Source: Dictyostelium discoideum (Eukaryota). Taken from it: a stretch of 64,000 bases of DNA. The stretch spans positions 5,312,001-5,376,000 of the forward strand of contig CM000152.2 in the NCBI GenBank assembly GCA_000004695.1. Direction: 5' to 3'. This document shows, in pieces, positions 9,663 to 64,000 of the stretch. Both the position numbers and the translations under genes were made by a program. The notes beneath the pieces are model-generated. The model saw nothing but the letters and a program-made list of their open reading frames with translations. It made no database searches and had not been told where the DNA came from. The first letter of the stretch is position 1. Each line of letters opens with the position of its first letter.

Positions 9663-9734
9663 TCCTCATTGGTGTAGTCGGTAACACTCTAGTCTCTCAC
9701 ACTGGTACCCCGGGTTCGATTCCCGGATGGGGAG
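9663..9734 (+). tRNA. tRNA-Glu (anticodon CUC)
   Basis: 72 nt. Acceptor stem TCCTCAT/ATGGGGA, D-arm GTGT-AGTCGGTAA-CACT, anticodon loop CT-CTC-AC, T-arm CCGGGTTCGATTCCCGG. Followed by T-run cttttttttt (Pol III terminator). Confidence 0.85.
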
Positions 9735-9772
9735 CTTTTTTTTATCAAAAAAATTTTAGATTACAGGTTCGA

Positions 9773-9785
9773 CTCCTTCATTAAT
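9773..9785 (+). promoter_or_regulatory. External B box (exB) about 40 bp downstream of tRNA-Glu
   Basis: aGGTTCGACTCC matches the B-box consensus GGTTCGANTCC outside the tRNA. Known peculiarity of Dictyostelium tRNA genes. Confidence 0.6.
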
Positions 9786-9789
9786 TATC

Positions 9790-10271
9790 CCAAAGGTTGT
9801 GAGAATTCAAATTAAAAATTAAGGAATATTACTCTACATTAAAGACCCACATATACCCAAAACAGAATTTCAAAAAGATCTATTCTTAAGAGGATATAGC
9901 TACAATCAACTATTCCCAAACATATTGAAGATAAGAAATCCGAACAAATTATTTTAATAATTTTAATATTACAAATATTAGAGAATCTTCATTAACTTTT
10001 AATTCAATTATTAATAATAATACCAATTCAATAATTTTAAATCCATTATGTAATACAAATATGATTAATGATCCATATGGCCATCTATTCTTTGATTGTC
10101 TTAAAACAAAATCATATATTAATGCATCCAAACTTAAAGAATTCATCTTCAAATCAACAGGAGGAAAAAATAATTGGTTACACGAAAGAACTACCAAAAA
10201 CAACAAAACAATAAACAAAATCACACCTATTACCTTCCAACAATAATTAAAAAAAAAAAAAAAAAAAAAAA
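9790..10271 (+). mobile_element. Possible 5'-truncated non-LTR (TRE3-type?) retroelement 3' fragment ending in oligo(A), downstream of tRNA-Glu
   Basis: Composition shifts to C/A-rich non-coding sequence from about 55 bp downstream of the tRNA and ends in a 25-nt A-run (10247-10271). No intact ORF. Placement matches the downstream-of-tRNA niche of TRE3 elements. Confidence 0.3.
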
Positions 10272-10859
10272 ATAACAAATCAAAATACAACAATATAACC
10301 AATTGTTACTATTCAAATAATTAAAATAAAATAAAATAAAATAAACATTATTATTGCAGAAGGTCTAACCCTTAGCAATTAATTAATTAATAACTAAAAA
10401 AAAAAAAAAATTCACATCATAATTAAAATTCAAAAATAAAATTGTAAATTATTGTTTATTCCATTTGGATAAACACTGGTTAACCGATTTTTTTTATATA
10501 AAAAAATCATAGTCTGCTCACGAATTTAGGTGACCTAACTTAACCTTGCAAGTTTTTTTTTAATTGCTAATATTTTTAAAATTTACAGTGCAAAAAATAA
10601 TAATACATAAAAATAAAAATTAAAAAAAATGGGAAAAAAAAACAACAATCTTATAATTTTTTTTTTAAATGGACAATATGTAAATCTTTAAAGATTTAAT
10701 CATAATAATTTATTATAATATTAGTTTAAAAATACTTTCTTGATGCCGACCGTTTCTTTATCATTTTATCTAATTAATCAGTATTTCTTTTCAGGCGACT
10801 GATTATTTGATTCTCTACCAGTAGTTCTTTTAAGGAGACTGGAAATTTCTTAATTCTAT

Positions 10860-11420
10860 TCATTTTAGTATCTATCCATGAATTTTTATTTGAACCAATT
10901 TACTTTACCATTATCAATAATTTCCAAACATTTTAGTATCCATTTTTATTACTATTTTTAGTTTTATAACTATTTCCAATCTGTAAAATATATTAATAGC
11001 AACCTTTCTTTATAATATTAAAACAATAATTTCTAAACATTTTAGTATCTATCCATATTTCAACCATATAAACTATTTCCAATTTCATTTTAGTATCTAT
11101 CCATTTATTACCATAATTTCAACTATTTCCAATTTGTAAAAATATTTAATATTACCACACAGTACATTTTAATTTGTTACTTTAACCAAATTCCAACCAT
11201 TTTTTAAACTATTTCCAATTTTTTAAAATTGATTGCTACCAATTAACAAATTATTATAACAACTTGTTTAATAGTAATGGTAATATAACAAGATTTCTTG
11301 AAATTTTAATATCTACCCACAAACATTTAAACCATTTTCTAATACTACTGGCCAAAATATTTAATATCAATCCATAACTATATTTACAAATTATTCAAAA
11401 TATTCTTTGATTTGGTAGTT
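10860..11420. repeat. Complex degenerate repeat block. Motifs cattttagtatctatccat (4x) and aactatttccaat (4x) are interspersed.
   Basis: Direct read. No ORF; likely decayed mobile-element sequence. Confidence 0.6.
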
Positions 11421-11508
11421 CATTGACATTATCCCAACAATGATTTATAAGTCCAAAACCAAAAAAATGAGATAGCCCCATAAACGTTACAAGTAACGGA
11501 GAAAATTA

Positions 11509-11803
11509 GGACTTTGTTCCACAGGACGATTTGAGATTAAAGAAAAACACTTATTTGGATTTGGTTCCACTGGGATGATTTGAGATTAAAGAAAAACATA
11601 AATTTGGATTTGGTTCCACAGGACGATTTGAGGTTAAATAAAAACACTAATTTGGACTTTGTTCCACAGGACGATTTAAGATTAAAGAACAACATTAATT
11701 TGGACTTTGTTCCACAGGACGATTTGAGATTAAAGAAAAACTCTAACATGGACTTTGTTTTACAAGGATGACACGAGATTAAAGAAAAACATTAATTTAT
11801 ATA
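11509..11803. repeat. Minisatellite of 6 tandem units of about 48 bp. Consensus ggactttgttccacaggacgatttgagattaaagaaaaacattaattt.
   Basis: Six head-to-tail copies with 85-95% identity. ORFs 11537..11749(-) and 11580..11771(+) are repeat artefacts. Confidence 0.85.
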
Positions 11804-12596
11804 GAACATTCGGGGCAAACAATAGTTTTATTACTTGTGAAACTGAAAAAATAACAAAGAATCTATGGGAATTAATAGTAGCAACCAATTGGTATACCAA
11901 TTAAAAGCAAAGTAAATGGATCATTTGCAAAAAATGGTCTTGGATAACGAAAAAATCAAAAGCATCCAACTTTGAAAATACCTACAACTAATTGGTATAC
12001 CATATTCATTAACATCCAAAGTAAACAAAATCATTTGCAAACGTGGAAATTGAAAAAAAGCAAAAAAAAGAAAAACAACCACCTACGGACAAGGAAAGGT
12101 CAATGAGTAAGACATTGACCACCTGCTTAAAAAATTTGTAGTATCCATAATAATTATTATATGTGTATTTAAAAAAAAAAATATTTAACAACATTACATT
12201 TACCATTAAGCTTTAAAGTTTGGGCGAAACTATTGAAAAACAATTGAGAGATCTTTGAAAACTATGGAAAATTCAATAAAAAAAAATCTTTAACGAAACA
12301 GAAGAATTCTATGAAAACACCTGAATACTTACAAACAGGTTACACTATTGAAATTCAAATAAAGTAAAAAATTAAACTTGAAAAATAGATTGTAACAATG
12401 AATTGAAGATTTCCAAAAAAAAAAAAAATATATTCAAAATAATAAAAAGGGTTAATCCAACACCACTATGTATATACCAAAACTATTATATATTTTTTAT
12501 AATTATTATTATTATTGTTATTATTATTATTAATAATATTATTATTTTAAAAAAATTAAAAATCACTAAAAAAAAAAAAAATATAAAGAGGTTATT

Positions 12597-12634
<38 letters not shown>

Positions 12635-12867
12635 AATTCTTGTTAATAATATTACCTTTAAAAAAAATTATTTATTCTTTATTTCTCTCAATTGTTAAAA
12701 AAAATGAATTAGTTAATATTTATCCACTTGATTTAAATTGGAACCGACATTTTAATATAGTTTATCTTTTTTTTTTTTTTTTTTTTTCTTTTTATATATT
12801 TATTTATTTATTTTTTAAAAATTAATGAACATTTTAGATAACAGTGGATTTTTTTTTTGTTTGTTTG

Positions 12868-13016
<149 letters not shown>

Positions 13017-13919
13017 TTTAATTTATTATTATTATTATTATTTATTTTATTTTATTTTTATTGAATAGTGAAATGAAAAAATCTATTTATACTTTTTTTT
13101 TTTTTAAAAGAAAATGAAAAATGTCTTTTATTTTTTATTTTTTATTTTATTTTTATTTTTATTTTATTTTTTTTTTTAAAAAAAAAAGGTAATTTTTCTA
13201 TTTTTGGAAAATTTTGTTTTTGGAAGGGGTTTAAAAAAAAACAAAAAATAATTTGGATCTTTTTTAAATAAAAAAAAGGTTTTTATTTTTACTTAATTTA
13301 GGAAAATCGCATATTGACATTCAGGAAGAAAATTTCAAGGCTTTTGGTTTTTTTTTTTTATAAAAAAGGTTTTTTTTTTTTTTATTTTTTTTTTTCAAAG
13401 AAAATTATTTAAGGAAATTTCTATTAAAAGTTAAAATTAATATTTTCATTATTATTATAGATGTTTTAGAATAATGTTTTTTTTTTATAAAAATTAACAG
13501 GGTTTTCAAAAAAAATTAAAAGATACATAAAAAACATTCAAGTTTGAGCATTTTTCGAAATTTAAAAATCTAAATAAATGTTTCAATAACAAAATGTGTA
13601 TGTAATATTGTTTTTGAGTTATTATAGCTTAAACAAATTGATCCACAATTACTCTAATTGATACAGCAGTCGTTGATTATTTGATTTTTAATATTTTAAT
13701 TTGTTTAATGTATTTGATTTTGTTGAAAATTTTTTATTATATTAGGCAGTCCAAGGTTGCATATGTATATCATTTTTTGAGAATATGGTAGTCTATTATT
13801 GTGTCTTGAATTTTGTCATCACTGTAGAGTGATTGTGCAAATATTAATTCTTTTAAAAATGTCTCCTATCAACACAAGAATTGAACATGCGACTATATAT
13901 TTACAAGAATAAAAATATT

Positions 13920-13990
13920 TGCGTATGCCGGGAATCGAACCCGGTTCAACTGCTTGGAAGGCAGCTATCATACCACTAGACCACATACGC
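13920..13990 (-). tRNA. tRNA-Gly (anticodon UCC)
   Basis: Reverse complement GCGTATGTGGTCTAGTGGTATGATAGCTGCCTTCCAAGCAGTTGAACCGGGTTCGATTCCCGGCATACGCA. Anticodon loop CT-TCC-AA. Near-identical to canonical eukaryotic tRNA-Gly-TCC. T-run follows on the minus strand. Degenerate exB-like GTTCAATTC about 30 bp downstream. Confidence 0.85.
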
Positions 13991-14466
13991 TTTGTTGATG
14001 ATAATTTAGGGTAAATGCTCGAATAAATTTTAATTATAATTTGTAATTTTTTAGTTATTTATTTTTATATAGAAGCAAAAATAAAGATTTTGTTCAGCAA
14101 AATTAAAGATTTTGTTCAACAAAATTAATATATTTAACCAGATATTCTAGATCTAGAATAATACCACCACGATCAGCGATGTATATTAGTCAACAATAAT
14201 TAAAAACAAAAAAAAAAAAAAAAACTCCTTGTTATCCAAACAAGGTTTGTAAATAAAATTTTAAAACAATTGGATCAAATTCAAAAAATATATATTTTAA
14301 TTAAATTTTATTAATCAACAAATATATTTATGTGGTATAATATATTACCTTCCACAGTTTCATCTCTACATAATTTTCCTAATTTTTCGCTTGTCTAAAT
14401 AAATAATTATTGAAAATGAATAGAAAGTTAGTTATTAAATATTTATTTTGATTATTAATTTTTCAT

Positions 14467-16458
<1,992 letters not shown>

Positions 16459-16695
16459 TGAAGTTAACTTTTAATGTGTTTTGAAAAGAAAATAAAACAA
16501 ATTAAAAATTTAAAAAAAAAAAAAATTTAAAAAAAAAAAAAAAATTAAAAATTTTAATACCATTTTTTTGACATTGTTCAAATAATTTTTTGGAGATATT
16601 TGTGGCCCAAAGTTAATTTAAAAAGGTAAAAAATCAAAATTTATTTGTGTCCTTTTTTTTTTTTTTTATTTTATTTTTTTTTCTTTTTTTTATTT

Positions 16696-16726
<31 letters not shown>

Positions 16727-16851
16727 GATTTCTTTTTTTAAAAAAACCAACGGGCTTATATAAATACACATAATTAAATTTTTTTTTTTTTATTTTTTTT
16801 ATTTTTTTTTAATATCCTTTCCTCTATAATAATTTAATTGCATATTATAAT

Positions 16852-18706
16852 ATGGAAGAATCAAATAACAATAATTTTTTATTTTCACCAGATTATATTT
16901 GGTCTCAATTACTTGAAAATAATAATAATAATTATAATAATAATTATAATAATATTAATAATAGCATTAATGAAAATTTACTAAATGAATTGAATAGTTT
17001 TCAAAATACAGGAGTATTTGATTTAGATACAAATATAGAACAGCAGCAACAACAACAACCAACTGAAATTCAACAACAACTACAAAACTATCAAGAATTC
17101 CAACAAAAAAAATATCAAGAACGTCAAGAACAATATCAAATTCAATATCAACAATCATATATAGAACCTTTAAATTTTAATGAAACATATAATAATGAAA
17201 CATATTGTAATATAATACCACAACCGCCCCAGGTTGAACAACAACAAGAACAAGAACAAGAACAAGAACAACAACAAAAACAACAACAACAACAATATAT
17301 TGAAAAACAAATACAAGAAATAATAAAAATACCAGAAAAAAGGCAAACACTTAACCAGATTCCTATTGAAATGATGCAACATAATTTCTTTAATACACCA
17401 AAACTTGATCAACAACTACTCTCAAATTATTCAGACTTTTTTAAAACAAATCCAATTTTACCTACAACCACAACAACAACAACAACCACAGCAATAACAA
17501 TAGATCAACAACAACAAAACCATATTGATAATCAGTCATTAAATAATTCAAACACAAAAACATCAAAGAACCAACAAAAAGATAATAATTTACCAAAAAA
17601 AAAGAATTTATCCTATGATATCACAAAAATAACATTTAATAATAATAATATAGAAAAAAAGAGAGACCAAACTGAATCAAGTAAAAATTTTAGAGAAAAA
17701 AAAAAGGAGTATGTAAAAGAAATTGAAAGTAAAATTTTAGCTCTAACCCTTGAAAATGATAAACTTAAAAAAGAAAATGATTCATTAAAAGTATTTTTAT
17801 AAAAATTAATAATTAATAATAATAAGAAAAAAAAAGAAAGATTATTAACAAAAAATACTTTATTTATTATATAATTAGACTATTAATGGATCAAATTTAA
17901 TGAGACCAGAACCAGAATCAATTAATATGATAATGGAATGTAAAAAAATTATAAAAAAACTGGAAAAAGCATTAATTGATAATGATGAAAGATCATTAAT
18001 TTATTTATTATATCATTATCATAGTGAAACATCAAAAAGGTATTCATTAGTAGAAATTGAAGTTGATAAAATTGCAAACCCATATTCACAAATAAAATTA
18101 AAGTTAGCAGGTTATATTCAAAATCCAACAACTTTAGATATTTTTGATGGTAATTTTAATAATAATAATAATAATAATGGTAATAAAGAAGAAGAAGAAG
18201 AAATATCATGGTTTATAAAATATAAAAATGAAGCAAATCTTACAATTGAACAATCAAATAAATTAGATTTATTACGTAATCAACATGGTTTAATTTTTGA
18301 AACCTTATTAAAAGAAAGAAAACAATTGGATAATGAAATTTTAAAAGTTTTTAATGAAATTATAATTGCTAGTTACGATGGTTCAAATGCAAATTTAATT
18401 AGTGATAAAGGATTTGAATTAAAGAGTAAATTGAAATCATTAAAAATGAAAATCATTTCAAGTTTAAATTTAAATTTAGATACATTCTCATCAATTAGTT
18501 CCATTTTATTACCAAAACAAGAAGCATTACTTTTGGTTAGAGCTCATTTATTTGGTTCAAGTAAATTAAATCCTCAAATGGATTTTTTAAATAATGTTTG
18601 GACAAATATAATCTCTTCAAATTCTTCATGTAGTGTTTTCGAAATTTTAAATTCTTTAAAGGAATTTTCCGATTTAGAAAATTTAGAATTAAATAAAAAT
18701 TCATAA
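16852..18706 (+). CDS. bZIP transcription factor, paralog A. Exon 1 is 16852-17790, intron 17791-17878, exon 2 17879-18706.
   Basis: Basic region plus leucine zipper at the end of exon 1 ([38 protein letters not shown]). Donor AAA|GTATTT, acceptor aattag|ACT, phase 0. Gln-rich N-terminal half. TATA-like tatataaata about 85 bp upstream. Confidence 0.75.
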
Positions 18707-19008
18707 TTAATAATAATAATAATAAATAATAATAATAATAATAATATAAAATAAATTTTTTTTTTTTATACAAACTCAAAATTAATTAGTAACTCTTTCA
18801 TTGAATAATGAAATTTTAACATAATGATTTGTTGTTTTAACCGAAAAATTGCGTGCAACTTTTTTTTTTTTTTTTTTTTTTTTTAATTTTTTTTTCTTTT
18901 TTTTTTTTTTTTATACACAAAATAAAAAAAAAATGAATCAGTTTATTTTTAGTTATCTATTTTTAAAATATTTAAACTATTCTGTAAATAATTGAATATA
19001 AAAAAAAT

Positions 19009-19421
19009 ATGGAAGAATCCAATAATTTTTTATTATCTCCTGATTCCATTTGGTCTCAACTATTAGAAAATTCATATGCATTAAATGAAATCAATTGTTT
19101 TCAAAGTTTTGGAACAATTGATAATAATAATAATAATTATAGTAATAATAATAAAAATGGTAATGAAGAACTCTCACAACCAACTGAAATTCAACAACAA
19201 TTACAAAATTATCAGGAATTACAACAACAAAAATATCAGGAGCGTCAACAACAATATCAAACTCAATACCAACAACCATATATAGAGCCAATTTTTGAAA
19301 TCGTAGTTACTCAACAAGATCAACAAGAACTAATTCCACAACAACAACAACAAGAACAAGATCAACAAGAAGATCAAGATCAAGAACAAGAACAAGAACT
19401 ACAACAACAACAACAACAACT

Positions 19422-19509
<88 letters not shown>

Positions 19510-19759
19510 AAACAACAAAAACAACAAAAACAACAGCAACAAGAACAACCGTCAATAATTAAAGAACAAGACCAAGAACAAAAGAAAATAATTCAAGAAC
19601 AACTATGTGAAAAATCAATACAAACATTAGAAAATCATTTTTTTAATACAAATACCCCAAAATTAGATCATCAAATACTTTCAAACTATTCTGAATTTTT
19701 CAAAATAAATCAACCAATAACAGATATACCTACAACTCTAAATACGAACTTACAAAGTG

Positions 19760-19842
<83 letters not shown>

Positions 19843-20438
19843 TTATTAAATGAAAAACAAATTGAATCAACATCAAAAATAAAAAGAATTAATTTAGGTT
19901 ATGATATTACAAAAATAACATTTAATAAAATTGAAAAAGGTAAAAGAAATCAAACTGAATCAAGTAAAAATTTTAGAGAAAGAAAAAAAGAATATATTAA
20001 AGATATTGAACTTAAATTAAAAGAATTAACAATTGAAAATGATAAACTTAAAAAAGAAAATGATACATTAAAGGTATATATATATATATATATTTATTTA
20101 TTTTTTAAAAATAAAAAAATATTAATTAACTTTTAATTTATTTTTTTAAAAAAAAAAAAAAAAAAGAAAATAGGAATTGAAATAATGAGATCAGAACCAG
20201 AATCAATTAATATGATAATGGAATGTAAAAAAATTATAAAAAAACTTGAAAAAGCATTAATTGATAATGATGAAAGATCATTAATTTATTTATTATATCT
20301 TTATCATAGTGAAACATCAAAAAGATATTCATTAACAGAGATTGAAGTTGATAAAATAATAAATCCATATTCACAATTAAAATTAAAATTAGCAGGTTAT
20401 ATTCAAAATCCAACAACTGAAATTTTAGATATTTTTGG

Positions 20439-20508
<70 letters not shown>

Positions 20509-21054
20509 GATGATAATGAAGAAGAAGAAATATCATGGTTTAAAAAATATAAAAAAGAAGCAAATCTTACAATTGAACAATCAAATAAATTAGATTTATT
20601 ACGTGATTATCATTGTTTAAAATTTGAATTACTTTTAAAAGAAAGAAGAGAACTTGATAGAGATATTAAAAAATTATATAATGGTATTGCATTAAGTGGA
20701 TTTGATTTAACACCAAGATCGTTAGCAAATTGGGATATTGATAAACAAATTGAAACTACAAATAAATTAAATCTATTGAAAATTAAAATCATTTCAAGTT
20801 TAAATTTAAATTTAGATACATTCTCATCAATTAGTTCAATTTTATCACCAAAACAAGAAGCATTACTTTTGGTTAGAGCTCATTTATTTGGTTCAAATAA
20901 AAAAAATCCTCATATTGAAATTTTAAATAATGTTTGGACTGGTTTAATTTCTAAATCTTCTTCTCCAAGTTTTTTTGAAATTGCAAAACTTTTAAAAGAA
21001 ATGTCAGATTCTGCCAATGCTAAAATTATGGAAGATTATTTATATAAAAAATAA
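19009..21054 (+). CDS. bZIP transcription factor, paralog B. Exon 1 is 19009-20073, intron 20074 to about 20166, exon 2 about 20167-21054.
   Basis: Same architecture as paralog A: [21 protein letters not shown]..., ...[38 protein letters not shown] | ...[38 protein letters not shown]... Long (CAA)n and (AAT)n tracts. Confidence 0.75.
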
Positions 21055-21061
21055 AATTTTT

Positions 21062-21095
<34 letters not shown>

Positions 21096-21540
21096 TTCTT
21101 TGTATTGTTTTAAAAAAAAAAATAATAATAAAAATTGGTGGTAGCCATATCAGACATCCTTATACAAAAAAAAAAAAATGGTTTAGATATTAATTAATGA
21201 AACTTGGGTCTTAAGCAATAATAGTTTAAGTTTTTTTATTTTTTTTATTTTACCTCAAGGTAAAATACACCTTTTGATTTGTGAATTATTGGGTATTATT
21301 TCTGGGTTTTTAGAGTGATTTTTGGTTTGGACTCTTTTGAGTGGTTTGATTGGTGTTTGGTATTTTTAGGTTGATGTGGGGTTAACTATAGCTAAGAGGA
21401 CCCTCTCCACCACCTTACAAATCTCTTTTAATCCGAAAATAACCAAAATTATAAAAAAATAAAATTAGTTTTGATTAATGCTTTATAGAATTCATATAAT
21501 ATTAATTGTGTTTCATTTTTTAATTATCAATTATTCAACA

Positions 21541-21551
21541 GGAATCGAACC
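21541..21551 (-). promoter_or_regulatory. exB box downstream of tRNA-Ser copy 1
   Basis: ggaatcgaacc is GGTTCGATTCC on the minus strand, about 30 bp past the tRNA 3' end. Confidence 0.6.
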
Positions 21552-21580
21552 TCTGATCTAATTTAGTTCTGTAAAAAGAT

Positions 21581-21661
21581 CGACACCTGCAGGGTTCGAA
21601 CCTGCGCCTCCGAAGAGAACGCCTTAGCAGGGCGCCGCATTAACCACTTTGCTAAGGTGTC
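21581..21661 (-). tRNA. tRNA-Ser (anticodon GCU), copy 1
   Basis: Minus strand GACACCTTAGCAAAGTGGTTAATGCGGCGCCCTGCTAAGGCGTTCTCTTCGGAGGCGCAGGTTCGAACCCTGCAGGTGTCG. 81 nt with long variable arm, anticodon loop CT-GCT-AA, A box TAGCAAAGTGG, B box GGTTCGAACCC. Confidence 0.85.
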
Positions 21662-22846
21662 ATCACAAAAGTTTTGTTTGACTCACTTTATTAAAATGTC
21701 ATCTCAAACTATTTGGGGTGATACACTTTGCTTAGGTGTCACCGTGACAACAACATCAAACTCAACCTTCAATTCAAACAAATTATCCAGAACAACAACA
21801 ACCAAAATTAACACAATTAACATCAATTGAGATCTCTGCAAACTTGATTTTAGTAAATTTCTCTAAAATTTTATTTTTTTTACTTTTTTTTTCCTAGAAA
21901 TTAATTTTCAAATTTTTTTTTTTTACCTTGGAGGTTACCAAGATTTATTTTTTGTAACCTTCCAGTTTTTTTGAGTTTTTTTGAGTTTTTTTTATTTTTT
22001 ATTTTTTTTTTTTCTTAGTGTGTGTTGTTATAAAACAAATGTGTTCATATTTGTTTTAATTTTCCTCTCTTTTTTTTTTTAGTGTTTATTTATTTTTATT
22101 TTGTGTTCATTCTAACCAAGTCAAATATAAAAAGAAAAGAAAAAAAAAAAAAAGAAAGAAATAGAAAAAAAGAAAAGAAAAGAAAAGAAAAGAAAGAAAT
22201 AGAAAAAAAGAATAAAAATAATAATAAAAAAACTTTACAAATCATGTGAAAATAATAATAATAGTAATAAATCTGCTTTTATAAATTTTTTTTATTAAAT
22301 TTAAATAAAAAAAACAAATTAAGAATATATTTTTTTTGTTTTATTTTTAATTTTGAAATTTCATTTGATTTTTTCTCAAATAAAAGTAAATTATTTTTAT
22401 TTAAAATTAATTATTTGTTATCGAATAAAAAAAAAATTTAATTCAAAATAAATGAAAGTGACAATTCAAATTTATTATTTTTAAATTTAGTTTATTTTTA
22501 AAATTTACTTTTATAAACATTAAAAAGACTTGTTTTCAATTCAATGTAAAAATTTTCAATAAAAAAAACATTCATAATAAATTTTAGATATTGTCGATAA
22601 CATCAACTTATTATTTAAAAATAATCATGTTAAAAATTTTAATGTCTATTAAATATTTATTTTATTGATGACCTCACTACTTTCAAAATTTAATGCAGTA
22701 AATGGAGATCGAAGTAATAAACAAACAATCTATAAAAAATCTTGTTCAGGTTTGTTAATCTTGTTAATTCGTATTTTAATTTAAAATAATATATTTGATT
22801 AATTATTTTTATTATTTAATACTTCCCTCAGAACATTTATCTACAT

Positions 22847-22885
<39 letters not shown>

Positions 22886-23079
22886 TGGATTAACAAGATT
22901 GATATATGTCCATCTGTGTTAATACGAGTTTTATTTAATATTTATTTAAAGGCTTATCATTTAAGCTGAAGGGTTATTTTAATCATATGAATTGATCAAA
23001 AGATATAATATTTGGGAGAGATGATTCTGGTCTACATAATGGTGATGTTTTTGTATTATTTATTTATTTTTTTACAACA

Positions 23080-23090
23080 GGAGTCGAACC
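23080..23090 (-). promoter_or_regulatory. exB box downstream of tRNA-Ser copy 2
   Basis: ggagtcgaacc is GGTTCGACTCC on the minus strand, 32 bp past the tRNA 3' end. Confidence 0.6.
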
Positions 23091-23121
23091 TGTTATTATG
23101 TTTTGAATTTTGGAAAAATTT

Positions 23122-23202
23122 CGACACCTGCAGGGTTCGAACCTGCGCCTCCGAAGAGAACGCCTTAGCAGGGCGCCGCATTAACCACTTTGCTAAGGTG
23201 TC
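23122..23202 (-). tRNA. tRNA-Ser (GCU), copy 2
   Basis: Identical 81-nt sequence to copy 1. Confidence 0.85.
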
Positions 23203-23250
23203 ATCGAAAATAAAATGGGAGATACACTTTCCTAAGGTGTCATTGAATCA

Positions 23251-23527
23251 AAAAATAATCAGATCGAAAAAAACAAACAACAACAACAATCTCTTTTTTT
23301 GATTATTTCATTTTTCATATAAAAAAGACTTAAAAAACAAATAAATAAATAAATAAACTATTTTAAAAAGCCATCTTTTTACTTTATTGTAATTTATTAT
23401 TTGTTTCGTTTTGAGAATTTTGCGTAGCAAAATTTTCAAAAAAAAAGCAAAAAATAATCAGATCGAAAAAAACAAACAACAACAACAATCTCTTTTTTTG
23501 ATTATTTCATTTTTCATATAAAAAAGA

Positions 23528-23535
<8 letters not shown>
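23251..23535 (+). repeat. Two 86-bp direct repeats (23251-23336 and 23450-23535) flanking a 113-bp spacer, followed by a 44-nt poly(A) (23531-23574). Begins exactly 48 bp upstream of tRNA-Ser copy 2.
   Basis: aaaaataatcagatcgaaaaaaacaaacaacaacaacaatctctttttttgattatttcatttttcatataaaaaagacttaaaaaa occurs twice. Position is the canonical TRE5 integration distance. May be TRE5 5'-terminal A-module-like repeats or an independent insertion. Confidence 0.5.
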
Positions 23536-23574
<39 letters not shown>

Positions 23575-23578
<4 letters not shown>

Positions 23579-25280
23579 GGAACCAAGTTAATTAGAAAAT
23601 TTCCAGATTTTTAACTTTTTAAAGAAAAATAAAAAAGATAGAAAGAAAATAAAATGAAAATCCCAAACAACACCCCAAATATTAAGCAACACAAATGCCT
23701 ACAAAAAATAAGCGAAATTGTGGATAAAACTCAATTAAAAAAAAAACAATTCAAATACGTCATAAACATCAATCACGAACCAGACGATAAAATAAAAAAA
23801 GATTTAGAAAAAAGTTTGGACAAAAAAGATGTTTTAATCAAAAGTAATAATACATTCAAAATTCTCACAGACAGTATTAGTACAGTAATCTATTTTGTAA
23901 ATATGTTTGATGCAGAATTAAAAGGACAATTTATAACCACTATAAGACCAAAAAATATGTATACAGATTTTGATTGGTATAAATCACTCACAGAAATAGA
24001 ATGGGTAATAGAAAATGAAGGATGTAAACTAATTAAATCAGAAATTAAAGGCGAAACTCTAATTATCAAAACAGTGAAAAGAGTCGTAGAAGAATTTGAC
24101 ACTATCATTGAACTAGACAATCTAACATTAATTGGACACTCCAACAAAGGATGGAGAGATCAAACCTCATTACCAGAAAATCAAGAAGAAAACAAAAATA
24201 AAAAACAATCAGATGAACAACAACCACAATCTACATCAGAACAAATACCAAAACAAGGAAAAAGAACAATCATTATCCCACCAATCACATCCTCATCTAA
24301 TGATAAAACATTTATGGCCCTAGATGATACAGCTCAAAAGGTAATAGAAGCATCACTAGAAAACGTAGATGAACTAACAAGAATAGAGAATGAGATCAAT
24401 ACACAATCGATAAACAATCAAGAAATTAAAACAAAATCAGAAAAACCTATCGAACCACCATCTCCATACAATACACCAATAAAACAACACGGCGAAACAA
24501 AGGGACTAACAACGGAAGAAAAACTTAGAGAGGCAAATGATATCTTCGACTTCACCAGCCCAAACACTGATGCAATAAGAAAAATAGAATTCCCACTTTC
24601 AATCCCTTCAAATCAATGGTTCTTCTCCTCTCCAATAAAACATATCATGAGTTTCAGCCCAACCTATGGGCACCATCGAAAATTATCGATTCACCAAGTA
24701 AATTGTTAAACACACCAAAAAAGAAACAACAAGACAAAACAAACAAGACCAACAAAACACCAGTCAAACCAAAATTGGGTGAATATGGACAAAAAAGCAT
24801 AAAAACAAAAATGGATGAAGATATAGACAACTTCAACAAGGAAATTCTAAAACAAATCAATAAATCAAAAAACCCCACAAACACACAAGACCAACAACAC
24901 AACGAACAAAGTAAAGATCAGTTAGAAGACAAAATAAACCAGAAACTTCAAAAGGTAGATAAAAATCTACCCCAAATAAAACTATAAAGAAAAACACAAT
25001 AAGAATAGGTGTTTGGAACGTCCAAGGATCCAACACCATCCAATCTGCCAGCATAATAAACACCGTTTTAGACAACAACAAGCTGGACGCAGCACTTCTA
25101 ACTGAAACAAATATAAAAACAAATAAAATTTACTCAATAAATCAACAATATAAAAACAAAATAACACACCACGCACCAATTGATAAAACAGGACAAGGGG
25201 TGTCACAAATCATCATCAACACCCGCAATAGAACTTCCTAAACATCTCAAAAAATACAATAATTCACTCAGTACTTTTTA

Positions 25281-25340
<60 letters not shown>
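23575..25340 (+). mobile_element. TRE5-type non-LTR retrotransposon fragment. Short 5' leader, ORF1 (23654-24709, continuing after a +1 frameshift to 24987, about 445 aa total), the start of the ORF2 endonuclease domain (about 25000-25250), then a 60-nt poly(A) 25275-25340.
   Basis: ORF1 MKIPNNTPNIKQHKCLQKISEIVDKTQLKKKQFKYVININHEPDDK... ORF2 begins RIGVWNVQGSNTIQSASIINTVLDNNKLDAALLTETNIK, an APE-like IGxWNVxG motif. Location and orientation relative to the tRNA-Ser genes match TRE5 (DRE-like) elements. Assignment to the TRE5 family is from recalled knowledge. Confidence 0.6.
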
Positions 25341-25341
<1 letters not shown>

Positions 25342-25665
25342 CAAGTTAATCAGAAAAATAAAAAAGATAGAAAGAAAATAAAATGAAAATCACAAACAAC
25401 ACCACAAATATTAAGCAACACAAATGCCTACAAAAAATAAGCGAAATTGTGGATAAAACTCAATTAAAAAAAAAACAATTCAAATACGTCATAAACATCA
25501 ATCACGAACCAGACGATAAAATAAAAAAAGATTTAGAAAAAAGTTTGGACAAAAAAGATGTTTTAATCAAAAAGACCCTGTAAAAAAAAAAAAAAAATAA
25601 AATGAGATCTAGCATCTCAAGGAGAAGCAAATAATAATTGCGTTATCCAATTCAAAAAAAAAAAA
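25341..25665 (+). mobile_element. Second, internally deleted TRE5-type copy. 5' leader plus the first 65 codons of ORF1 (25383-25577) are joined directly to a 78-bp 3'-terminal module and oligo(A).
   Basis: Leader and ORF1 start are over 95% identical to 23589-23850. Junction atcaaaaag|accctgtaaaa. 3' module ...tgagatctagcatctcaaggagaagcaaataataattgcgttatccaattc(A)13 is identical to the mini-element at 27501-27590. Confidence 0.6.
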
Positions 25666-25968
25666 AGGTGTCATTGAATAAAATGGGATGATACACTTTG
25701 CTAAGATGTCATCGAAAACCAAATGGGTAATACACTTTGCTAAGCTGTCATCGAAAACCAAATGGGTAATACACTTTGTTAAGGTGTCATCGAAAACCAA
25801 CGGGTGATACACTTTGCTAATCTGTCATCGAAAAATATTTGGGTGGTAAACTTTGCTAAGGTGTCCACACAAAATATTTGGGTGATACACTTTGCTAAGG
25901 TTTCGTCGAAAAATATTTGGGTGATACACTTCGCTAAGGTGTCATTGAAAAATAAACCACCACAAGAC
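25666..25968. repeat. Tandem array of about 7.5 units of 38-40 bp. Each unit holds the revcomp of the first 17 nt of tRNA-Ser (including the A box) plus its immediate 5' flank.
   Basis: Units such as gatgtcatcgaaaaccaaatgggtaatacactttgctaag repeat. The same unit is present in 1-2 copies directly upstream of each intact tRNA-Ser gene. No complete tRNA is attached to this array. Confidence 0.8.
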
Positions 25969-27311
25969 TAATTTTTTGATAAATAATTTTTTTTTTATAG
26001 TTTTTATTGTTTTTTTTATTTTTTTTAAGAAAATGTGGCTGAATAATAATTTTTGAAACTATATTAAAATAAAAAATAATTAAAAAAAATACAAAAAATA
26101 AAAATAATCAGTAAAGTGATTTATATTTTTAATTTATAAAAAAATATAAAAAAAATGAATATACATTCTGCAAACTCGATTTGACTCCATTTGGTTTCTA
26201 ATTGTCTTAAAAATTATTTTTTTTATTTTTCCTTTTTTTTTTTCTTAATTTTTTAAAAAATAACAATAAATCTTACCCTATCAAAATTGTTATTTTTTTT
26301 TCTATTTTAGGATTTATTACATATTTAATTAATATAATTACTTTATTACTATTGTATTTTACAGTTGTAGTTTTTTTTATATAAGATGGCTCGAGATGAG
26401 TAACTGGACTGTCTAATTTTAGGAATTTAAAAAAAAAAATAAAAACTATTCAGAGAACCCAATTTCATTTTTAATTTTTTTTTTTTTTTTAGGGAGTTTA
26501 ATTCAAGAACAATTATAAACCATTTTAACTAATAATAATATAAGTTTTTTTTTTTTTTTATAATATTTTATAATATAAGTTGTTTTTTTTATTTTATTTT
26601 ATTTTTTTAATTATAATTAAATTTGTTTTTGAAATGCAGTTTTATTTAAAAATTCTAAGGTTTTTTCAATAAACTTTATTGAAAAATTTAGGGGAGTTAT
26701 ATGGCCATATATTTTCCTTAATGTCATGGTGCATAGATAAATCTTTCCTTTCTCTGACTTTAGATTAATATTGATTATTTTTATTTCCCTTTGGATATGA
26801 TAGTATTGATATGAACATTGATGTTTTAATAATACACATTTTTCAGCATTTCTATTGTAAAACAACACTTCTATTTAATTTAATGTCACATTTCATCAAC
26901 ACCAATATTTAACTTAAATTTTTTTTTTTTTTTTTTTTTTTTTGATTTTTTTTTTTTTTATAATTTTATTTTAATTTTTTTATATAAAAAGATATAATTT
27001 TTTTTTTTCATTTTATTATTAATTTAAAAAGGTAAAAAAAAAAAAAAAACATTTAGTAAAAACTTTACTTAAATAATCATGTTAAAAATTAATATCTATT
27101 AAATATTTATTTTATTGATGACCTCATTAAATTCAAATTTTAATACAGTCAACGGAGATCGAAGTGCCTGTATCTTAAATTGTGCTCATTAACAAACAAT
27201 TTATATAAAATCTTGTTCAGATTTGTTTATCTTGTTAATTCGTTTTTTATTTTTGTTACTAACATACTATTGATCTACAAATAGTAATAGTAAGCATTTT
27301 ATTTTTTCCAA

Positions 27312-27322
27312 CAGGAATCGAA
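27312..27322 (-). promoter_or_regulatory. exB box downstream of tRNA-Ser copy 3
   Basis: ggaatcgaacc is GGTTCGATTCC on the minus strand. Confidence 0.6.
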
Positions 27323-27365
27323 CCTGTTATTCAGCTTTGAATGTTGGGAAATTTTTGCAAAATTT

Positions 27366-27446
27366 CGACACCTGCAGGGTTCGAACCTGCGCCTCCGAAG
27401 AGAACGCCTTAGCAGGGCGCCGCATTAACCACTTTGCTAAGGTGTC
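27366..27446 (-). tRNA. tRNA-Ser (GCU), copy 3
   Basis: Identical 81-nt sequence to copies 1 and 2. About 170 bp of 3' flank (27066-27245) is homologous to the flank of copy 2 (22605-22770), so these copies sit in a segmental duplication. Confidence 0.85.
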
Positions 27447-27493
27447 ATCCAAAACCAAATGGGAAATACACTTTGATAAGGTGTCATCGAAAA

Positions 27494-57693: not shown

Positions 57694-60796
<3,103 letters not shown>

Positions 60797-60933: not shown

Positions 60934-63689
60934 TTATCTATATTCTCTTACTAAAAATCTTAAGAAAACATAAGCTAATAATAAATAACCAACAATCATA
61001 CCAAGCAAAACATACATATCAGTGAATAATCTATTTGGATTTGCACCAATAGTTGAAAGGAATTCTAAACCATCAGCATAAGTGGGTCTTGTGTTTGGAG
61101 GATTATATTCAATCCAAAGACCATTGAATTCATTGACAACAGGAATTTCCAAACCATATGACATAAAACTAATCCAAACCAAACCAATTAAATACTTGGG
61201 AATTGAACTTCTTGCCAAAAGGAAACCATCAAATAATAAAAATACAAAGAGTAACAAGATTGACACCATATTTGCAGTACCAAACGTTGGAGAGATTGTA
61301 CTGATTGCCATACACATTGATGAGGCCACTGTACTTGTTAACACCAAAGAGATGAGGAAATAGATGAAATGGAGGATACCAGGACGTAAACCAATCATAT
61401 AATAACAAATTGAACCCAAAATAATTGGTGGTATAACTCTCATTGGAATGATATCGGTTACTACTTTGGCTAAAAAGTATGCTGATGTTCTATAGAAACC
61501 ATTGGCTCTTTCACGAATGAAAATGATACGGTCATTGTAGAAAAGATCTAATGATGTAATACTTCCAAATGAGAGTAAAGCAGTCATGAAAAACATTGCA
61601 CCAAATCTATTTTGACAACCTGGTTCAAGATTGGCTGGTAATTTCCAAAAGAGATAACCTAATGTTAACCCAACAAAAATATGTACAAAGTAAGTGGTAC
61701 GCAAAAGGAAAGGATTTCTCATATAATTTAATAAAGAACGACGGCAAACTACAAAAAATTGTGTCCAAAATGATGTTGCATATTCTTCAACTTTACCAAT
61801 TTTAATATGACTTGCTAATGGTTCACCTTGATTACCAACTACAATAATTGGACTTGCTTCTTCAATATCTTCAACATCATCATCATTATTTTTATTATTA
61901 TTATCATTATTCTTTACTTTATTATTATTATTATTATTATTAATATTATCACTTGCTAATAAATGATCTCTTTCATCACTATCACTATCACTATCATTAT
62001 TATCAATTGATGGACCATTAATACCATATATATGACGATGATGATGATGATGTTGTTGATGATGAATATTTTGATTATGTGGATTATTAATGATACGATG
62101 ATGATTTAAATTAATATCACTATTATTACTATTTGAAGATAAAGCTGGTGAAGTAGATTGATAAAATGGTGAAGCAACACGAGAATCAACATAGGTTGAA
62201 TTAAATCTTTGACAATTTTTATCGGTGACCATTGAAATGATGAAATCTGCAGGATTTTTAAGATGCATTCTATAGTTTTGTTGTTCAAATTCAGTCATAC
62301 CAGCAATTTTCTGTTTAATGAAATAGTTTACAGAGTCCTCTCTTTTACCAGAGAAATAAGGATTACCTTGATGTAAGAGGATCAAATTATCAAATTGTTC
62401 AAAGAGTTCAGCGGAAGGTTGATGAATTGAAAAGATGATAGTACGTTGACCCTTTGTTGAATTGTTTGCCAATTGTTTAAGTTTAGTGATTAACTCTGAA
62501 GCGGAATGACTATCAAGACCAGATGTTGGTTCATCGATGAATAGAATACTTGGATCAACTATTAATTCGGTTGCGATCGATAGTCTTCTACGTTCACCAC
62601 CAGAGATACCTCTCTTCTCTGAGGTACCAATTGGGTTATCGGCCACACGAGTTAAGCCCAACTCCTCCAATACACTTGCGACACGTTGTTGTTTGATTTC
62701 CAATGACATATTCTCTGGAAGTTTTAAAAGGGCAGCAAACATCAAATGTTCACGACATGTTAAAGTACCAATTTGAATATCATCTTGAGTGACATAACCA
62801 GAGATTCTCTTAAAGTTTTTACCAACGGGTGCACCATTGATCAATACTTTACCATCGATGTTACCAACGTTCTTTCTACCCGATAGAATATCCAATAAAC
62901 TTGTTTTACCCGAACCCGATAAACCCATCAATGCTGTCAATTGACCGGGTGGACAAACACCATTGACATTATCTAAAATTTGTTTTCTCTTTACATCCTT
63001 ACCAAAGAATCCACTACGTTCATTAACGTAGCAACTAATATTATGAAAACTTAATTCACAAACTAAATGTGTATCTTCTTTAAAGTTTTTACGATCTTCT
63101 TGAAGTGAGAATATTAAAAAGATTGCACCAATCAATAGAGTCAACCCAATGAATCCAACACCTGACCCAACATAAATGTATAGGAAACTCATTGATGCCA
63201 CTGGTACCGGATAAATGGGTGGTGGTGTTGGTGCACCCGTTGCAACATCAATACATTCACCCGACATACATTGTAATGGAATGGCTGGTAACATTTGATT
63301 GATTGTATATTGTGAGAAAAGACAATTGCTAGTTCCATCTGGATTCGTTTGTGCTCCACATTCAAATGTTGCCTCACCTGTAACTGCACTAATTAAACCA
63401 TCCAATATGAATCCACAATAGGTAGTACAATTACAAACACTATTTTGACATACAATCGATTGATTTTGACCTGGTAAAATAGTACGATCACATTCTGTAA
63501 ATGAACAATTAAAATATAATGGTGATCCATGAATTCTATAATATAAATTCATTGAACAAACTCCTGTTTGTGTATTATAATTTCCACCTGGAAATTGACA
63601 ATCAATTGATGCTGATGCTGTTGAATTATTTAAATCACCATTAACTTCTGCACCTATTAAATTAAAATAAATAATTATTAATTTTTAAT

Positions 63690-63733
<44 letters not shown>

Positions 63734-64000
63734 AAAAACTTACTTGTTACAACACAGCTATAACTTTTTTCAAAATAAGTATAAGGTGAAGAATTACATT
63801 CAAAAGATGAAGAGTAATTACCTGTTAATGCTTGACAACCCTCATTATTTAAACAAACTGTACATTCTAAACCAGCTTGACCAGGTGGACAAACACATGA
63901 TCTTGGTGTTGGATAATTGTAAATTGGTGGACAATATCTACCACCATTACAATTCATTTTATCCCAATTATGTTGTGGATCTACATTCTCTGAACAATCA
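60934..64000 (-). CDS. ABCG-family (White-type) half transporter with an N-terminal Cys-rich EGF-like ectodomain and an extra TM helix. 5' end lies beyond the window. Exon 64000-63744 (partial), intron 63743-63654, exon 63653-60934.
   Basis: Walker A GLSGSGKTSL, ABC signature ISGGERRRLSIA, Walker B ILFIDEPTSGLD, then six TM helices (ABC2-type). Upstream Cys-rich region ...CPPIYNYPTPRSCVCPPGQAGLECTVCLNNEGCQ... and CQNSVCNCTTYCGF, followed by hydrophobic FLYIYVGSGVGFIGLTLLIGAIFLIF before the NBD. Donor A|GTAAGT, acceptor aatag|GT. Confidence 0.8.

Follow-up and report, generated by a model that had tools for sequence, protein, structure and literature searches.

We have analyzed a stretch of 64,000 nucleotides of Dictyostelium discoideum (contig CM000152.2, positions 5,312,001 to 5,376,000), here called the window, with a G+C content of 22%. 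Close to its end, on the minus strand, we found a gene that codes in one polypeptide for two epidermal growth factor (EGF)-like repeats, a modelled disulfide-rich beta-barrel, a Pro-rich stalk, an extra transmembrane (TM) helix that we call TM0, a complete ATP-binding cassette (ABC) ATPase domain and a six-helix ABC-2 domain. The locus is very probably the 3' five-sixths of the Dictyostelium gene for an ABCG half-transporter of the Adp1 type, and it may be the gene listed in dictyBase as abcG24. Such an architecture had been described before for yeast Adp1 and related fungal proteins, and among the conserved genes of the Adp1 type this one is an ordinary member. An earlier inspection of the DNA letters (from here on the sequence-only reading) had presented the architecture as unusual. 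This was overstated, as it is the same as the published Adp1 layout (PMC2848647, PMC6647914, PMC9426558).

The coding sequence within the window is made up of two exons. The open reading frame (ORF) found by program at 60934..63552 (minus strand, 872 aa) can be extended in frame upstream to 63653, and the whole of exon 2 is one open frame containing the rest of the ectodomain (about 155 Cys-rich residues), TM0, the nucleotide-binding domain (NBD), a linker and the six-helix transmembrane domain (TMD). The intron that precedes it is AT-rich and has canonical ends (GTAAGT...TAATAG), it interrupts a Ser codon, and its length is divisible by 3. Translation read through 63654..63743 contains a stop, and the splice junction (...SYSCVVTS/AEVNGDL...) is the same in P0026, an independently annotated protein of 1145 aa from Dictyostelium cf. 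discoideum that is 97% identical over the whole partial window protein. After splicing of both exons this partial protein has 991 residues, and every codon was checked against the window sequence. The intron, which was absent from the sequence-only reading, is the only one found and sits inside the ectodomain, not between the Cys-rich and the ABC parts. An intron or a stop separating these two parts was looked for in the genomic sequence and none was found; no stop codon interrupts the frame between ectodomain residue 87 and the end of the TMD, and everything lies in a single continuous exon, therefore no splice is needed to join the Cys-rich part and the ABC core. The 5' end had been placed outside the window and indeed exon 1 runs past 64000. 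Window residue 1 aligns to residue 168 of P0026, so that about 167 residues are missing from the window. Judging from P0026, they would correspond to the signal sequence, a spacer and most of the first EGF-like repeat. The features of the gene, from its 5' side, are the following:

63744..64000, minus strand: exon 1, partial, from the frame-1 minus-strand translation and running beyond the window end; it covers the end of EGF-like repeat 1, then repeat 2 and the beginning of the Cys-rich barrel module.
63862..63951, minus strand: EGF-like repeat 2 (CNGGRYCPP...CVCPPGQAGLEC), from the match to EGF repeats of the profile of A4, a family alignment of 36 diverse sequences.
63247..63810, minus strand: modelled disulfide-rich beta-barrel module of the ectodomain, the span including the intron.
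63654..63743, minus strand: intron of 90 nt, GTAAGT...TTTAATAG, poly-A rich, from direct sequence reading.
60934..63653, minus strand: exon 2, including the stop codon at 60934-60936, from the ORF list and codon-by-codon mapping.
63190..63246, minus strand: Pro-rich stalk GAPTPPPIYPVPVASM between barrel and membrane, from direct reading.
63106..63189, minus strand: extra transmembrane helix TM0, SFLYIYVGSGVGFIGLTLLIGAIFLIFS, residues 241-268 (28 residues), Kyte-Doolittle value 2.56.
62521..62976, minus strand: NBD, residues 312-463, Pfam ABC_tran with E 6.9e-26.
62899-62925, minus strand: Walker A, GLSGSGKTS.
Within the ATPase domain, minus strand: Q-loop, YVTQDD.
62584-62607, minus strand: signature, ISGGERRR.
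62512-62547, minus strand: Walker B, ILFIDEPTSGLD.
62413-62430, minus strand: H-loop, SIHQPS.
61852..62151, minus strand: low-complexity insertion of 100 residues rich in His, Asn, Asp and Ser in the linker between NBD and TMD, from direct reading.
60937..61764, minus strand: ABC-2 six-helix TMD, up to the C-terminus ...FLRFLVREYR, Pfam ABC2_membrane with E 3.7e-44 over residues 716-928.

The ABC core places the protein in the ABCG subfamily. Both Pfam matches were far above the gathering scores, and the order in which they appear, NBD and then TMD, is the reverse topology typical of this subfamily. The succession of a hydrophobic helix, an NBD and a six-helix TMD given by the sequence-only reading was thus borne out. 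All five ATPase motifs (Walker A, Q-loop, signature, Walker B and H-loop) are intact by sequence and the hydrophobic segments of the TMD reach residue 988. TM0 appears as a single strong hydrophobic segment located 60 residues before Walker A, and AlphaFold2 models it as one long helix. The closest solved relatives of the full-length P0026 were ABCG2 (E 1.6e-107), followed by Pdr5, Cdr1, the plant ABCG16/25, ABCG1 and ABCG5/8. The human transporters ABCG2, ABCG1 and ABCG5/8 share with the window protein the NBD-then-TMD order, the ABC-2 membrane domain and all the ATPase motifs, and over the NBD region the window ABC core is about 45% identical to ABCG2. However, canonical ABCGs start at the cytosolic NBD, without signal sequence, ectodomain or TM0, and in the tree described below they fall outside the clade of the proteins that carry the N-terminal domain (N-domain). 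The linker insertion includes the run HHQQHHHHHRH, is shorter in D. firmibasis and is shorter or missing in the orthologues outside Dictyostelium. Besides, no cysteine is found in the extracellular loop that joins the last two TM helices (EIPVVNEFNGLWIEYNPPNTRPTYADGLEFLSTIGANPNRLF, window 61000-61130, minus strand); the corresponding loop of ABCG2 carries Cys that form intra- and intermolecular disulfides.

The region ahead of TM0 is very different in composition, with 22 Cys in the 240 residues found in the window as compared with 9 Cys in the remaining 723 residues. At least 170 residues with spaced Cys had been described before the helix; the Cys-rich region is there, although its length in the window is 240 and not 170. 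The three Cys motifs quoted by the sequence-only reading were also located at the expected places, CVCPPGQAGLEC at 63862-63897, CQNSVCNCTTYCGF at 63409-63450 and CGAQTNPDGTSNC at 63322-63360. In the A4 alignment 16 Cys were invariant and another 3 nearly invariant, with a core pattern C-x-C-x2-G-W-x-G-x2-C-x2-C ... F-x-C-x-F-x2-C ... C-x-A-G-E-C that is followed by a Pro-rich stretch (kept at the position of the stalk), the helix and usually a K/R-rich segment. The C-x-C-x5-G-x2-C of EGF-like repeat 2 was invariant across the 36 sequences. The Cys pattern cannot be attributed to chance because it is conserved in homologues (HMMER E values down to 1e-148), and 16 Cys never change among the 36 sequences.

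The domain had been called EGF-like, and this holds for its first part, not for the larger remainder. When the A4 profile was compared with the sequences in PDB, positions 4-90 matched EGF repeats of Notch1, Jagged and Delta (E 1.3e-6 to 3e-4), and no match was obtained past the first ~90 positions. Pfam searches with single ectodomain sequences gave no family at threshold, EGF models included. The EGF assignment would hold, then, at the level of profiles and for the first part of the ectodomain. We have modelled the region with AlphaFold2, using the A4 alignment and residues 112-462 of P0026 as target. The ectodomain model (mean predicted local distance difference test, pLDDT, of 85.3 and predicted template modelling score, pTM, of 0.76) has two small EGF-like units and a beta-rich module of about nine strands (model residues 120-277), with pLDDT mostly above 90. 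The Pro-rich stalk that comes afterwards was less confident, and is followed by one long helix at model residues 292-327. We conclude from the model that the non-EGF part of the ectodomain is a predicted disulfide-rich beta-barrel of roughly 8 strands with no close solved relative. A weak likeness was detected to APCDD1, a cell-surface Wnt/BMP inhibitor with two disulfide-rich beta-barrel domains, which we consider a lead to the fold class only and not homology. APCDD1 showed no sequence similarity in the profile search and has neither EGF repeats nor a transporter. A sterol-binding N-domain like that of NPC1 was also considered and dropped, as Pfam gave no match.

Regarding topology, we infer an exoplasmic ectodomain, TM0, a cytosolic NBD and the six-helix TMD, an arrangement that is well supported and that the sequence-only reading had proposed as well. 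A hydrophobic N-terminal segment, the signal sequence, is found in P0026 and in most homologues. The full P0026 ectodomain has an even number of Cys (28), and the part in the window contains 7 N-x-S/T sequons where 3.6 are expected from shuffled sequences. EGF-like repeats are known to fold only in an oxidising compartment. Basic (K/R-rich) residues come directly after the helix in most homologues, and the NBD would remain cytosolic only in the N-out orientation, which supports an exoplasmic ectodomain. In yeast, Asn-165 of Adp1 is an occupied N-glycosite (PMC3433913), and therefore the N-domain is lumenal or extracellular in the type member of the family.

The same design was found over a large phylogenetic range. 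Among the matches listed there was no protein labelled as D. discoideum, the closest belonging to Dictyostelium cf. discoideum with 97-98% identity. In the public databases, dictyostelid orthologues already carry the label of ABC transporter G family protein. With the ABC core as query we retrieved full-length dictyostelid orthologues from D. cf. discoideum (1145 aa), D. firmibasis (1128 aa) and Tieghemostelium lacteum (1139 aa), together with proteins of ~1000-1050 aa from Polysphondylium, a EukProt gene model and a metagenome, and shortened gene models from Heterostelium and Acytostelium. Matches of 900-1090 aa came from Physarum, Pelomyxa, Naegleria, Acrasis, Mucorales, Syncephalis and the opisthokont protist Nk52. 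Among these relatives there are several complete ORFs from transcriptome assemblies, which encode the fusion of ectodomain and ABC core. The common layout consists of a signal sequence, EGF-like repeats, the Cys-rich module, a Pro-rich stalk, one TM helix, the NBD and six TM helices, and recurs in dictyostelids, Physarum, Pelomyxa, Naegleria, Acrasis, Mucorales, a chytrid, a nucleariid and an apusomonad. The single hydrophobic helix was located 55-90 residues before Walker A in every full-length case (18 out of 18 homologues examined), and the number of Cys, counting all the residues ahead of Walker A, was between 23 and 33 in the full-length homologues.

To follow the ectodomain by itself we used a profile built from Dictyostelium sequences only. 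Over 1.84 billion representatives, HMMER gave 38 proteins at E values up to 1e-3, many of them ABCGs of 800-1800 aa. Hyaloraphidium (a chytrid), Lithocolla (a nucleariid) and Thecamonas (an apusomonad) are among those with a name. The Hyaloraphidium protein (P0166) was matched with E 5e-6 library-wide, and Syncephalis P0091 with 24.9 bits (E 7e-8 within a set of 94 sequences). An iterated profile (hmmalign) reached Mucor, Rhizopus and Pilobolus with E 1e-58 to 1e-67, but it includes the TM0 columns, which inflates these E-values, and the results without iteration are the safer evidence. In a neighbour-joining tree of 160 ABC cores, all the N-domain proteins (52 of 52) were located in one clade of 63 tips, the other 11 being short, mostly fragmentary proteins or cluster mates of P0169. 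Outside were the ABCG2-like half-transporters and both halves of two-NBD ABCGs of 1250-1290 aa, which we take to be YOL075C-like. The tree was made without bootstrap, and the separate clade is to be considered indicative only. At the sequence level, these comparisons show that the design is conserved in Amoebozoa, in fungi with their protist relatives and in Heterolobosea. It is not a fungal peculiarity and probably dates to early eukaryotes.

The known system that this protein resembles most is S. cerevisiae Adp1 (YCR011C, UniProt P25371), with the fungal ABC-G group VII or "clade V", which like the window protein is a half-size ABCG with topology TMH1-NBD-TMH6 and a large EGF-bearing soluble N-domain. 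Adp1 has been described with one central NBD between two transmembrane domains, and the related group VII is present in most fungi down to chytrids with a function that is considered enigmatic (Kovalchuk and Driessen, 2010, PMC2848647). In the Candida auris inventory the topology is given as TMH1-NBD-TMH6 with N-terminal EGF repeats (PMC6647914), and the same layout with EGF repeats is found in PMC9426558. One report has linked Adp1 to the uptake of glutathione-coated quantum dots and describes the yeast protein as localised to the vacuole and the plasma membrane (PMC4225547). The proteins of the early-diverging fungi Mucor, Rhizopus, Syncephalis and Hyaloraphidium that have the Adp1 layout carry an N-domain that is homologous by sequence to that of the window protein. 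The protein search with the A4 profile gave 6 matches, none of them a named Adp1, and there is no Adp1 structure in PDB. The differences with Adp1 are that the window protein is amoebozoan and has the long His/Asn-rich linker insertion, and that the dictyostelid N-terminus has an extra spacer of ~100 residues. Other ABC transporters also have a membrane-anchored N-terminal extension ahead of the core, such as the TMD0 of ABCC/MRP and the ABCB HMT-1 (PMC3823996, PMC2944878). However, these extensions are multi-helix hydrophobic bundles in TMD-then-NBD transporters, not a single helix with a soluble Cys-rich ectodomain.

All the architectural traits of an Adp1-type ABCG were found in the window protein, and we consider it very probable that it belongs to this group. 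Some points weigh against the whole interpretation. The link to yeast Adp1 itself is made through the same architecture and through sequence homology to proteins of Mucorales, Zoopagomycota and a chytrid. The residues that follow TM0 in the Dictyostelium protein (LQEDRKNFKED) are not net positive, unlike those of most homologues. The 5' end of the gene lies beyond the window. Finally, we know of no substrate for any Adp1-type family member.

We have found that the ectodomain also exists without the transporter. Standalone paralogue genes are present at L001:10001-11226 and L002:10001-11497 (D. citrinum and D. dimigraforme). One of the products, P0001, has a signal sequence, the same Cys-rich ectodomain (64% identical), a Ser/Asn-rich stalk, one TM helix and a short basic tail (KKRK), and P0002 is a similar protein. 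No ABC sequence was found within 10 kb at either side of these genes, which are syntenic in both species, located between the gene of a 787-814 aa protein and a FNIP/RING gene with two P450 genes behind it. At the residue position of the window intron there is also a gap in the D. citrinum copy, suggesting that the paralogue is a partial duplication of the transporter gene. The existence of the standalone paralogue argues that the ectodomain is able to function on its own. In another protein of the family, P0146 (1011 aa), the gene model fuses a protein with CBM20 and GDPD (glycerophosphodiester phosphodiesterase) domains to the standalone paralogue. This is probably a read-through of two adjacent genes, because the upstream neighbour of the paralogue in L001 and L002 is the 787-814 aa protein.

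As for the mechanism, the signal sequence would insert the Cys-rich domain co-translationally into the lumen of the endoplasmic reticulum (ER), from which it would arrive at the cell surface or the interior of an organelle. TM0 would bring the chain back to the cytosol, placing the NBD where ATP is. Two chains may pair as in the ABCG2 homodimer, and ATP hydrolysis would then drive the export or flipping of a substrate, hydrophobic or amphipathic, from the cytosolic leaflet. The most speculative step, which we propose tentatively and as something that may well be wrong, is that the tethered barrel lies above the exit and works as an acceptor of the substrate or as a lid, and not as a receptor for signalling. 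Its specific version is still more doubtful, namely that the conserved non-EGF part is a beta-barrel able to bind hydrophobic ligands, which the short Pro-rich stalk would hold directly above the exit of the ABCG pore as a built-in acceptor of lipid or sterol-like cargo. The ligand-binding role of the barrel is suggested by its predicted fold class only. In the case of other exporters of the ABCG and ABCA types, the cargo is taken over by external acceptors. If true, a built-in acceptor would be the first mechanistic handle on the Adp1-type transporters, whose function has been unknown since 1991, and would explain that dictyostelids keep a copy of the ectodomain without transporter.

Two other roles for the ectodomain have been considered, both of which we regard as improbable. 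The first, which comes from the sequence-only reading, is that of a receptor-like ABC protein, in which the ectodomain would bind an extracellular ligand or partner by means of the EGF-like repeats or the barrel and control ATPase activity or transport through TM0, either as a ligand-gated pump or as a signalling device. EGF-like repeats are typical of extracellular recognition proteins, and the standalone type-I membrane protein of D. dimigraforme and D. citrinum points to a binding function of its own. However, conservation is seen in the barrel and the last EGF-like repeat and not in a repeat array, no ligand, partner or signalling output is known, and a single flexible Pro-rich stalk with one helix would be a poor allosteric link. 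The second is that the ectodomain is mainly a module for folding, trafficking or dimerisation (for instance as a signal for ER exit or sorting, or as a covalent clamp of the dimer) that does not act directly on the substrate. In this case the disulfide-rich N-domain could have taken over the stabilising role that disulfides play in ABCG2, since the Cys of the last loop is absent here, and the vacuolar and plasma membrane localisation of Adp1 (PMC4225547) is compatible with a trafficking role. Against it, a domain of ~250 residues with 16 invariant Cys, kept in Amoebozoa, fungi and Heterolobosea, is large for a sorting signal, and the standalone paralogues occur without any transporter. An annotation or assembly artefact, by which the gene of a neighbouring Cys-rich surface protein and an ordinary ABCG gene are read as one, could be suspected from the standalone paralogues and from read-through gene models such as P0146, but it is effectively refuted by the ORF that continues within one exon from ectodomain residue 87 to the end of the TMD and by the recurrence of the fusion in more than 50 proteins of many lineages, complete transcriptome ORFs among them, besides the fact that an ordinary ABCG would have no TM helix before the NBD.

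Returning to the Adp1-type transporter with its tethered N-domain, our analysis adds a little to the literature consulted, namely that the layout is also found in Amoebozoa, Heterolobosea, apusomonads and nucleariids, that most of what has been called an EGF domain is, according to the model, a separate disulfide-rich beta-barrel without solved relative, and that a membrane-anchored copy of the ectodomain stands alone in Dictyostelium species. Since Dictyostelium is genetically tractable, the function of the Adp1 family could be conveniently approached through this gene.

In the neighborhood, a convergent gene on the plus strand (window 57758-60796) ends 138 nt from the stop codon of the transporter gene. 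The C-terminal 612 residues of its product matched the Pet127 domain of a mitochondrial RNA-processing protein (E 3e-83), and the ORF holds an unbroken run of ~60 Asn codons near 58650-58880. Far from there, five tRNA genes were found in ~18 kb (window 9663-27447), one Glu(CTC), one Gly(TCC) and three Ser(GCT), the three Ser copies being located at 21580, 23121 and 27365 on the minus strand.

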